From assembly GCA_963702895.1 (NCBI GenBank), contig OY969767.1, positions 288,001 to 352,000 on the forward strand: a stretch of 64,000 nucleotides of DNA, written 5' to 3'. This document shows positions 39,774 through 41,975 of this stretch, piece by piece; the stretch's first letter is position 1, and each line of letters opens with the position of its first letter. Origin of the DNA: an uncultured Elusimicrobia bacterium. GTDB lineage: Bacteria; Elusimicrobiota; Elusimicrobia; 2-01-FULL-59-12. Under the pieces are notes generated by a model. That model was given only the letters and a program-made list of their open reading frames with translations. It did no database searches and was not told where the DNA came from. The position numbers and the translations under genes were made by a program.

Positions 39774-40805
39774 TTACTCCACTTCTTTCAGAGCTTTGAT
39801 GATCTGCGAAGGGCTCGGAAGCAGGTTCTTCAATTTCTTCGGAAGGTGAGCCATGACGCGGTAAGTGGCAACGCCGATAGGTTTATGCGAGTCTTTCAGG
39901 GCGTACTCCACAATGGTTCTATCTTTAGACCGGCATAGGATAATTCCGATGGGGGGATTTTCACCCTTCAGGCGAACCCGCTGGTCAAGAGCCGCCAGAT
40001 AAAATTGCATTTTGCCGACATAGTCAGGGACAAAGTCGCCGACTTTAAGCTCCAAGGCGACCAGGGCTTTGAGAGCCCGGTGAAAAAGCAGCAGATCGAT
40101 GAAGTATTCCTTGTTATGGAACTCCAGGCGATATTGGCTGCCGACAAAGGAGAACATTCCTCCCATTTCAGCCAGGAAACGTTCCATCTTGGCCAGGATG
40201 GCCCGCTCAAGCTCTCGCTCACTATGTTCTCCTCCAAGCTCCAGAAAATCAAATGTGTACTCATCTCGAACCGCCAGTCTGCCTTGTTTACGAAGCTCGG
40301 GGGAAAGGCTTTTGTGGAAATTAGTCTGGCCCGTCATGGTTTTTTCATACGACCGATTGTCAATCTGGTGGATCAATACGTCTTTGGTCCAGCCATACTT
40401 TCTTGTCATCCGAATGTAGAATTCCCGTTCCATATCGTCCTTGCAGCGCTCCATAATGATGAGATTGTGAGACCATCCTATTTCTCGCACCAAGGGTGCG
40501 AGTTTTTCCCGTCTAGAATAGGTCTCAAAGAATATACGCGCGCGCCAGAGATTGGACGATGAAAATCCCTTGATTCCTGGGAATTCGCGTTGCAGGTCGC
40601 CGGCCAGCGTTTCGACGACTGATTTGCCCCATTGCTCTCGGGATATCCGGGTAGAAATCATTTGACCCACATCCCAGTACATTAGGATCAGTTCCTTGTT
40701 GACGGCCTTTAAGGCGACATACTGGGCGGAGCGAATTCTTTCTTTGATCGCCCCGAGGAGAGCTCTATAGTCGTTGGGAAGACGCGATTTCGTCATGGAG
40801 GCCAT
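39774..40805 (-). CDS. YhcG/DUF1016 PD-(D/E)XK nuclease family protein
   Basis: VNKELILMYWDVG, GFSSSNL, GWSHN, Y.FDFL, IDLLLFHR.L..LVALELK, GKMQFYL. Confidence 0.92.
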   Translation of the reverse strand: MASMTKSRLPNDYRALLGAIKERIRSAQYVALKAVNKELILMYWDVGQMISTRISREQWGKSVVETLAGDLQREFPGIKGFSSSNLWRARIFFETYSRREKLAPLVREIGWSHNLIIMERCKDDMEREFYIRMTRKYGWTKDVLIHQIDNRSYEKTMTGQTNFHKSLSPELRKQGRLAVRDEYTFDFLELGGEHSERELERAILAKMERFLAEMGGMFSFVGSQYRLEFHNKEYFIDLLLFHRALKALVALELKVGDFVPDYVGKMQFYLAALDQRVRLKGENPPIGIILCRSKDRTIVEYALKDSHKPIGVATYRVMAHLPKKLKNLLPSPSQIIKALKEVE

Positions 40806-40902
40806 ATTTTAACCTTTTCAGGCAGGCTCGGCGGCGGGGTGTCGGTTTTTTCAATCCAGTGCGTCTATTCCGTCCTCTGCATAGTGTTTGCTGTGGCGAG
40901 AG

Positions 40903-41158
40903 TGGCCCTGATCGGACTCCCGCCTCCGCCAAGGCTGCGGCGGGCAAGCGAACCACAAAAATGGCCTTGGCCGGACTCGAACCGGCACGGACCTATAGGG
41001 TCCAACGGATTTTAAGTCCGTTGCGTCTACCATTCCGCCACAAGGCCATTCATTTTGTGCGCTTGCCCTCCGTAGCTTTGCGAAGGAGGGTCTACCAATT
41101 CCCCGCCACTGAGTCGTTGGCGGGCCCGCCGCGTTGTAGTGGCGGGCGCCACAGGGCC
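40903..41158 (-). other. Split, insertion-interrupted tRNA-like shell surrounding tRNA-Leu
   Basis: 5' GGCCCTG-TGGCG[ins]GAATTGGTAGA[ins]CGCACAAAA ... TTTTGTG-GTTCG[ins]AGTCCG-AT-CAGGGCC-A 3'. Confidence 0.75.
40962..41047 (-). tRNA. tRNA-Leu (anticodon UAA), CCA not encoded
   Basis: GGCCTTG/CAAGGCC acceptor, GGCGGAATGGTAGACGC D-arm, ACGGA-CTTAAAA-TCCGT anticodon arm, long variable arm, GGTTCGAGTCC. Confidence 0.96.
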
Positions 41159-41227
41159 ACATGGACAACAAGTGTACATCTAGGGGACGCTCCTCACAAA
41201 CTCACATTCCATCGAGAAGAGAGCCCC

Positions 41228-41305
41228 CAAAGCAGAGACACGAAAGCAAAAAGCAGATAGCAAAACGTTTTGCTTTCGGCGTCCTGCGATCGTTGCTCTG
41301 CTTTG
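41228..41305. repeat. Heptamer-based imperfect inverted repeat
   Basis: CAAAGCAGAG..CTCTGCTTTG enclosing CGAAAGCAAAA..TTTTGCTTTCG. Resembles 35692-35765. Confidence 0.6.
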
Positions 41306-41370
41306 AATGGTCTGCTTTGACGGCTGATCAGACCATGATCACAGCGAAGCGGTTTTGTGAGGGACGTCCC

Positions 41371-41667
41371 TTAGAATTTGTAGGCGATGGCGCCGACGAA
41401 GCGAATGCGACCGTCCTGGGTGTTGAAAATGGGCTGGAACTCCGTCTGACTGGGAGCGCTCAGCACTTCACCGCGCAGACCCCTCATCCAACGCAAGACT
41501 TTGGCGGGCGTGACGGTTTTATCGGCGCTGGCCTCCCAACGGAGATTTTGTTCGTAGGTTTCATCTCGCAGGAGCGGGACTCTGCTCCGCAAAGTTGGGG
41601 CTGCCCAAAGGGCTTGCGTTCCCGCAAGGACGATCATTGAGCTCAAGATGACGAGAATCCGTTTCAT
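41371..41667 (-). CDS. Small secreted hypothetical protein
   Basis: Signal peptide MKRILVILSSMIVLAGTQALWA, RBS AAGGGGG, C-terminal beta-strand-like VGAIAYKF. Confidence 0.65.
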   Translation of the reverse strand: MKRILVILSSMIVLAGTQALWAAPTLRSRVPLLRDETYEQNLRWEASADKTVTPAKVLRWMRGLRGEVLSAPSQTEFQPIFNTQDGRIRFVGAIAYKF

Positions 41668-41811: not shown

Positions 41812-41975
41812 TAACCGGAATTCCCCAGTTCGTCACCCCGGCGGATTGTTAGCCGGGGTCTATCATAGACGTAAGAGTAATGATGGATCCCGGCTGACGG
41901 CATGCCGGGATGACGGCACAAACAGGTTGAACTCTGACGGACGATAGATTGAATGTGACTGAAGATTTCCGGTTG
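41812..41975. mobile_element. MITE/REP-like palindromic element, copy D
   Basis: TAACCGGAA..TTCCGGTTG termini. First 36 nt of core identical to copy A. Confidence 0.85.

Follow-up and report, generated by a model that had tools for sequence, protein, structure and literature searches.

A tRNA-Leu(TAA) gene nested between the halves of a second tRNA gene in an Elusimicrobia genome, and its counterparts at other tRNA loci

On the minus strand of the window (the whole stretch of 64,000 nucleotides analysed here), an intact tRNA-Leu(TAA) gene is enclosed by the two halves of a second tRNA gene, as the original prediction had proposed; all of the outer and inner pieces are on this strand, at the coordinates which that prediction gave (Table 1). 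The inner gene is the single tRNA gene of the window (ARAGORN, Rfam). No other TAA tRNA was called in the source genome, a single contig of 2.72 Mb (labelled G000; other G numbers are the genomes of relatives), and the long ORFs there contain 3110 TTA codons. The locus is a decayed example of an arrangement found in cleaner form at other tRNAs and in relatives. It seems reasonably probable that the tRNA-Leu(UAA) gene arrived as a hairpin-closed cassette, which split and replaced the resident gene in one step.

Anatomy and decay of the Leu(TAA) locus

Table 1. Features of the nested locus and its neighbours, in window positions
Feature	Positions	Strand	Remark
Upstream neighbour: 98-aa hypothetical protein	41371..41667	-	
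Outer tRNA-Leu 5' half, piece 1 (acceptor 5' strand, D arm start)	41147..41158	-	
45-nt double-hairpin insert in outer D arm	41102..41146	.	family of ~100 genome copies
Outer 5' half, piece 2 (D loop)	41091..41101	-	
29-nt single-hairpin insert with 4-nt tail, in outer D stem 3' strand	41062..41090	.	
Outer 5' half, piece 3 (D stem end, first anticodon-stem bases)	41055..41061	-	
Imperfect inverted repeat, left arm	41048..41054	-	base -1 pairs with inner discriminator
Intact inner tRNA-Leu(TAA), CCA not encoded	40962..41047	-	ARAGORN; Rfam RF00005, 64.4 bits
Inverted repeat, right arm (inner tRNA trailer)	40954..40961	-	
Outer 3' half, piece 1 (T loop start)	40949..40953	-	
30-nt single-hairpin insert in outer T loop	40919..40948	.	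41062-41090 family, opposite orientation
Outer 3' half, piece 2 (T stem and acceptor 3' strands, discriminator A)	40903..40918	-	
Downstream neighbour: DUF1016/YhcG PD-(D/E)XK nuclease gene	39774..40805	-	context; no link to nesting seen

With the three inserts removed, the outer gene retains 30 nt upstream and 21 nt downstream. Scoring these 51 bases without the inserts and the inner tRNA, a check that had been suggested for the locus, identified them as Leu-derived but did not recover a gene: they agree with the intact Leu(TAA) gene of the relative G009 at 47 of 51 positions, with those of G004 and G010 at 46, with the inner gene and two Leu(CAA) genes at 44, and with 236 non-Leu tRNAs at a mean of 33 (maximum 42), while ARAGORN found no gene in the rejoined halves, even with a lowered threshold. 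Since the best scores are those against Leu(TAA) genes, the outer gene would have been a leucine tRNA, most likely of the TAA type. About 34 nt of it, the anticodon and variable arms, are absent, and it is this loss, together with the three palindromic inserts, that makes the halves dead. The two outer acceptor strands nonetheless pair with each other, and compensatory changes set both apart from the inner acceptor, as had been predicted. The last piece of the 5' half (piece 3) is in addition complementary to the right arm of the repeat, and matches the G009 allele in L004.

The outer 3' 17-mer, allowing one mismatch, occurs at 7 places in 5 of 301 genomes of the phylum. The inner allele resembles the genes of G002 (same genus) and G004, and the outer allele that of G009; in the allele alignment, the two rows of insert-bearing outer halves are uninformative. 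Because it is the inner allele, and not the outer, that resembles the gene of the same-genus relative, the outer gene cannot be taken as the older of the two at this locus.

A misassembly of two tRNA loci, the danger named in the original prediction, would be one account of the nesting, and the 5' inner/outer junction is in fact bridged by no contig in the sequencing runs X1-X6 (41044-41133 is covered by none). The 3' junction, by contrast, is bridged by a 149-nt contig from run X2, which comes from another study and matches 40897-41031 with 1 mismatch in 135 nt; separately assembled relatives show the same layout, and G000 contains the outer allele only once. Misassembly is thus extremely improbable. 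A contig from run X1 matches 41134-41384 exactly; runs X3-X6 gave no informative piece, and scans of metagenomes gave 0 matches for the 3' junction and 3 unrelated ones, all without a tRNA, for the 5' junction.

The stretch 40903-41158 is predicted to fold at z=-5.8. In the predicted precursor beginning at the outer start, both acceptor stems form at probability near 1, the inner leader is paired to the trailer, and the anticodon stem is present. This fold, together with the still perfect outer acceptor stem, could be read as a selected precursor RNA, in which the outer halves and hairpins would clamp the inner tRNA, control its processing, or give a second RNA. Arguments against such selection are that the D arm and T loop contain inserts and the anticodon arm is missing; that the fold energy follows from the palindromic parts; that the arms differ between orthologous tRNAs; and that no matching outer pair is found at Leu(TAA) in six relatives (G002, G004, G007, G008, G009, and G010). 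A selected precursor accordingly has a low probability. Of the "Russian-doll" RNA that had been envisaged, the predicted fold with its two acceptor stems stands, but the outer halves are unconserved at this tRNA in the relatives examined and could not be spliced to a tRNA. As relatives do not keep the outer pair, the doll-like fold is read as a by-product, and a functional doll RNA is unlikely. No group I or group II intron core was found in the insert, tRNA being the only Rfam match in the window. A promoter scan at the locus gave no minus-strand site, and a -10-like hexamer at 41171-41176 was recognised by eye only; at other nested loci, promoter-like hexamers (also by eye) precede the outer 5' copy.

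Homologues of the 98-aa upstream protein adjoin Leu(TAA) in four relatives, but in the opposite orientation. An ESM Atlas search with this protein returned hypothetical clusters only, and NCBIfam gave no match above cut-off. Two further repeats were noted nearby. Separating the nested locus from the upstream gene (41160-41370) is an imperfect inverted repeat that belongs to another family; the second, at 41831-41917, is a CGTC-type palindromic repeat, other genome copies of which carry double-hairpin inserts at one fixed point.

Nested and repeat-flanked tRNA genes in the genome and its family

Inverted repeats were scored as complementary runs of at least 7 bases between leader and trailer, with a null from shuffled pairings (500 for G000). 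By this test 16 of the 47 tRNAs of G000 are repeat-flanked (null mean 0.13, maximum 2 in 500), as are 31 of 169 in ten genomes of the family (null mean 0.67, maximum 5; the 169 are a sample of ~370 Rfam matches, chosen without regard to flanks) and 2 of 69 in other families (null 0.53). The repeat is associated with an upstream copy of the 5' part of a tRNA, which accompanies 12 of the 16 in G000 (Fisher p=3.6e-4) and 16 of the 31 in relatives (p=3.5e-6); the remaining 15 in relatives have no 5' copy, 16 tRNAs there have a 5' copy and no repeat, and this test, which requires exact matches, misses the halves of the Leu(TAA) locus itself. The same nesting, looked for at other tRNAs and in relatives as had been proposed, is found genome-wide and family-wide. 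Clean cases in G000 are Ala-CGC, Pro-TGG, Arg-GCG, Gly-GCC, Leu-CAG, Glu-CTC, and Glu-TTC. At Glu-TTC (G000:C1:1666440-1667030) there are two nesting layers around an intact tRNA, each with its own inverted repeat of ~20 bp.

Pieces of tRNA lie on both sides of 35 of 215 tRNAs. At the 27 of these with a repeat score of at least 4 (8 were dropped, by a cut-off chosen after the data had been viewed), there are 12 loci where the 3' copy takes up the tRNA sequence no more than 5 nt from where the 5' copy leaves off (null 5.6, p=0.0024; rho 0.60); the other 15, Leu(TAA) among them, fail this 5-nt test, and the automated junction calls are noisy. Across loci, the split points range from the D loop to the T stem, with spacers of 10-60 nt.

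These variable split points bear on another explanation, that the halves are att scars of integrase-driven islands, later eroded. tRNA genes serve as integration sites, the gene downstream of the nested locus encodes a DUF1016/YhcG protein, and the local gene order around Leu(TAA) differs from that in relatives. Against this, the split points and spacers vary as described, the inverted repeats would be left unexplained, and no integrase was found near Leu(TAA), the nearest tyrosine recombinase (PF00589) match, one of 4 in the genome, being ~39 kb away. The probability of this origin appears very small. The earlier claim that these are no simple att copies stands: the locus has kept both halves, their allele is unlike the inner one, and there is no integrase within ~39 kb.

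The arms themselves have little sequence in common. They share 2.9 of 10 bases between tRNA types, form no sequence family, and mostly differ between orthologues; the conserved terminal inverted repeats that define MITEs are thus lacking. What most repeat-flanked tRNAs do share is a pair between positions -1 and 73, with which the arms begin; it is present at 44 of 47, compared with 68 of 168 others, with the same discriminators as in unflanked genes. The upstream arm is likely to be a fold-back copy of the tRNA's own trailer, made afresh each time; either trimming and extension of a broken DNA strand or a self-priming pre-tRNA cDNA would give it. Three reverse transcriptases and ComEC are present in G000. 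The reverse transcriptases (at G000:C1:230277, 463860, and 1962540) are 507-aa frames, and possibly belong to group II introns.

Some of the tRNA cassettes have a layout in common with small double-hairpin inserts, target-hairpin-reversed target-hairpin-target. At Leu(TAG) of G006, the outer halves, when rejoined by eye, make up a gene of the lineage type, and the allele inside them is divergent, with different anticodon and variable arms; the order of the insert is CG, hairpin, CG, hairpin with tRNA, CG. Leu(TAG) of G007 has the same order, with CAG as the target, and at Ser(GGA) and Pro(TGG) of G001 the order is target, tiny loop, reversed target (with one difference), tRNA hairpin, target. 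At Leu(TAA), no first hairpin with a reversed target could be parsed.

One alternative would dispense with a moving cassette: template switching at the acceptor stem, plus separate short duplications, would produce the nesting, and hairpins would settle in the debris. Many tRNAs do have 3' copies only, often in tandem (Gln-CTG, Phe, Val-GAC), as this would lead one to expect; the absence of a sequence family among the arms, the non-contiguous halves at Leu(TAA), and the match of the inner allele there to its congener G002 also fit. It accounts less well for the correlation between 5'-copy ends and 3'-copy starts, for outer strands that pair with each other through changes compensatory relative to the inner gene, for divergent inner alleles within lineage-type outer genes (G006 Leu-TAG), and for the short target duplications at Leu-TAG of G006 and G007. 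Template switching and duplication are considered a minor but appreciable possibility. The Leu(TAA) locus, taken alone, counts against the arrival of a cassette, as its halves do not rejoin, its repeat is short and imperfect, and no GIY-YIG gene lies beside it; neither an empty site of this exact locus nor a circle was seen.

Hairpin inserts, a candidate nuclease, and a possible mechanism

The three small inserts had been taken as inverted copies of one family. This applies to 41062-41090 and 40919-40948, but not to 41102-41146, which belongs to a double-hairpin family. Single hairpins of the former type occur 11 times in G000 (loop-motif scan), 3 of them adjoining tRNAs. That one of these two inserts had been copied from its counterpart was considered and rejected, as several bases differ and both variants occur elsewhere. 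Members of this single-hairpin family also occur on the flanks of tRNA-adjacent GIY-YIG relatives in two Pseudomonadota records (L187 and L190).

Double hairpins number 103 in G000 by a permissive scan. By hand count, 48 of them are no more than 700 bp from a tRNA, a zone that takes in 8.7% of the DNA outside long ORFs; many of the others sit within other palindromes. Those of one subfamily in the T loops of tRNA copies have a middle dinucleotide that is the reverse complement of a duplicated 2-nt target at 26 of 27 sites, a count that leaves out 8 sites of another subfamily, without target duplication, to which the insert of the nested Leu(TAA) locus belongs. Target, middle, and target read CG/CG/CG at 19 of these sites and CA/TG/CA at 7 (6 Pro copies, which may share origins, and 1 Val), with one decayed exception; a second double-hairpin family in T loops gives CG/CAG/CG at 3 sites. 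This layout would equal that of a linearised dumbbell circle.

Several tRNA copies have a hairpin in place of their anticodon arm or T loop, which offers a parallel for the arms missing at Leu(TAA). In dead Ala, Pro, Thr, and Arg copies of G000, and in L199-L207, the anticodon arm is exactly replaced by one short GC-rich hairpin family. Elsewhere, tRNA-Gln(CTG) has six 3' copies in tandem (G000:C1:2455000-2455544), all with a double hairpin in their T loops. In two genera (G000:C1:1396400-1396558 and L028:1413-1580), tRNA-CAT is followed by one and the same T-arm copy, which contains a double hairpin; the orientation of the insert is opposite between them, and the T stem of the copy agrees with the intact gene in G001 and G005. 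A long tetranucleotide microsatellite directly follows tRNA-Ala(GGC) at G000:C1:1700700-1700830.

A candidate enzyme is suggested by the small GIY-YIG proteins of the genome. Five of the 9 GIY-YIG matches in G000 are within ~600 bp of a tRNA; the tRNA-linked proteins, which lie at other tRNA loci, are 79 and 86 aa long, with PF01541 as their sole domain. The gene for the 79-aa protein adjoins tRNA-Ala(GGC), at G000:C1:1700931-1701170. Relatives of this protein are within 400 bp of a tRNA at 11 of 23 loci across many phyla, and equally close in 19 of 28 cases in the class (two of which are one tandem locus), in the order 5' copy-gene-tRNA or tRNA-gene-3' copy. At Ala(GGC) of G001, the GIY-YIG gene runs into an 18-bp repeat surrounding the tRNA. 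The best PDB matches are UPF0213 proteins, with weak matches to SLX1. The association is incomplete: no GIY-YIG gene was found beside the Leu(TAA) locus, and there is no match to the 79-aa protein at E<=1e-8 in G004, G007, G009, or G010, three of which have nested tRNAs. At G000:C1:1813100-1814010, tRNA-Asn is followed by two units of a GIY-YIG gene and a 3' tRNA copy, with the ORFs reading into the copy.

If the cassette reading is right, a tRNA gene folded as single-stranded DNA would be cut, likely by the tRNA-associated GIY-YIG nuclease, and the break would be repaired with a donor tRNA gene, the upstream arm of which would be a fold-back copy of its own 3' trailer. An outcome would have to include a complete tRNA to survive, since the inner tRNA is the sole UUA reader. 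The outer anticodon and variable arms would have been lost at or after insertion, and hairpin inserts would have gathered later in the dead halves; the inner tRNA would be made from a precursor starting at the outer 5' half. This comes close to the earlier suggestion of a dead isoacceptor rescued by a fresh copy, but differs in that insertion and killing were likely one event. Prior damage is not needed, as Leu(TAG) of G006 and G007 is split without a small insert near the junction; and the inserts probably came after, since killing the sole UUA reader first would likely be lethal and insert-free junctions exist.

More tentatively, and with a probability well short of even, the small inserts, nuclease genes, and nested tRNAs may all belong to one class: dumbbell-shaped single-stranded DNA elements, defined by shape rather than end sequence, and mobilised by a single-domain GIY-YIG protein cutting tRNA genes folded as single-stranded DNA. 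One loop of the dumbbell could contain a few bases, the gene for the nuclease, or an entire tRNA gene. Elements bearing a tRNA could insert into a tRNA gene that is essential and single-copy and leave the host viable; they could also replace tRNA alleles in different lineages, build up several layers, and impose maturation from precursors in which leader and trailer are paired.

If the cassette reading holds, essential tRNA genes in this lineage would have been swapped repeatedly without an integrase, a transposase end, or an intron. This would explain how tRNA alleles turn over, and would suggest a function for a small GIY-YIG group that is widespread but uncharacterised. It would also raise a processing question. 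Pairing of position -1 with the discriminator hinders RNase P and RNase Z, and a third of the tRNAs of G000 would have such a pair. For annotation, it would mean that tRNA fragments beside tRNA genes should not be taken as prophage att sites by default.

Comparison with known systems

By the tests that define them, the nested unit is neither an integrase island, nor an intron-containing or split tRNA, nor a MITE. A literature search that covered few subscription papers did not turn up any account of such nesting among the tRNA genes of bacteria.

Phages, ICEs, and islands are integrative elements that use tRNA genes as insertion sites and rebuild the gene through attP. There too a tRNA gene is split, the incoming sequence restores its function, and a fragment of the old gene stays. 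The nested locus differs in supplying a whole tRNA gene and in having both halves within ~100 nt; nested loci in general have varying split points, no integrase nearby, and an inverted-repeat closure. In place of the single displaced direct-repeat fragment and fixed crossover of integrase-type events, both halves are found and the split points vary.

In split, permuted, and intron-containing tRNAs, too, the tRNA sequence is divided, with an insert close to the anticodon arm. In the present case, no tRNA can be made from the outer pieces, and what interrupts them is another tRNA gene.

REP, BIME, and REPIN sequences with RAYT, and the IS200/IS605 family, provide a different comparison: in the available text of two papers, these are dimeric short hairpins and elements inserting into palindromes, with circular single-stranded intermediates for IS200/IS605, and no tRNA cargo or target is described (PMC3733652, PMC6006769). 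Multi-copy short hairpins, often dimers (the 103 double and 11 single hairpins here), are shared with these systems. Unlike them, the inserts have no terminal GTAG or CGTC tag (ends by eye; GTAG occurs inside loops only), and the one Y1 transposase match in G000 is partial (PF01797, 55 residues, 23.3 bits).

The candidate enzyme can be compared with the Ssn single-stranded DNA nucleases (clade cd10448) associated with NTS/SRM hairpin repeats, described as single-domain GIY-YIG proteins of ~80-100 aa with a proposed mobile origin; the word "tRNA" does not appear in the main text of that paper (PMC11893778). The tRNA-linked single-domain GIY-YIG genes of G000 are of similar size, and also lie by hairpin repeats. 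They lack NTS/SRM flanks, however, and the inserts are not NTS. The tRNA-associated protein is 31% identical to the NTS-flanked one, and stands apart from the NTS-flanked pair in a weak tree (56 rows, 87 columns), in which an NTS-like motif is found beside 2 of the 56 rows, neither of them tRNA-linked. The two Ssn-like genes of G000 itself (G000:C1:543300-543700 and 554230-554640) have NTS-like repeats on both sides.

Finally, the rRNA genes of CPR bacteria contain non-intron GIY-YIG insertion sequences, mostly at the top or base of stem-loops, in a report whose main text likewise does not contain the word "tRNA" (PMC11270868). GIY-YIG genes are again found within a gene for a structured RNA, and three of the GIY-YIG relatives found here (L191, L192, and L197) are in apparent 23S rRNA genes, recognised by eye. 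The difference is that rRNA tolerates the insert, whereas a tRNA does not, and that a replacement gene is present here; in this respect, the nested unit may be likened to a self-repairing tRNA insertion.
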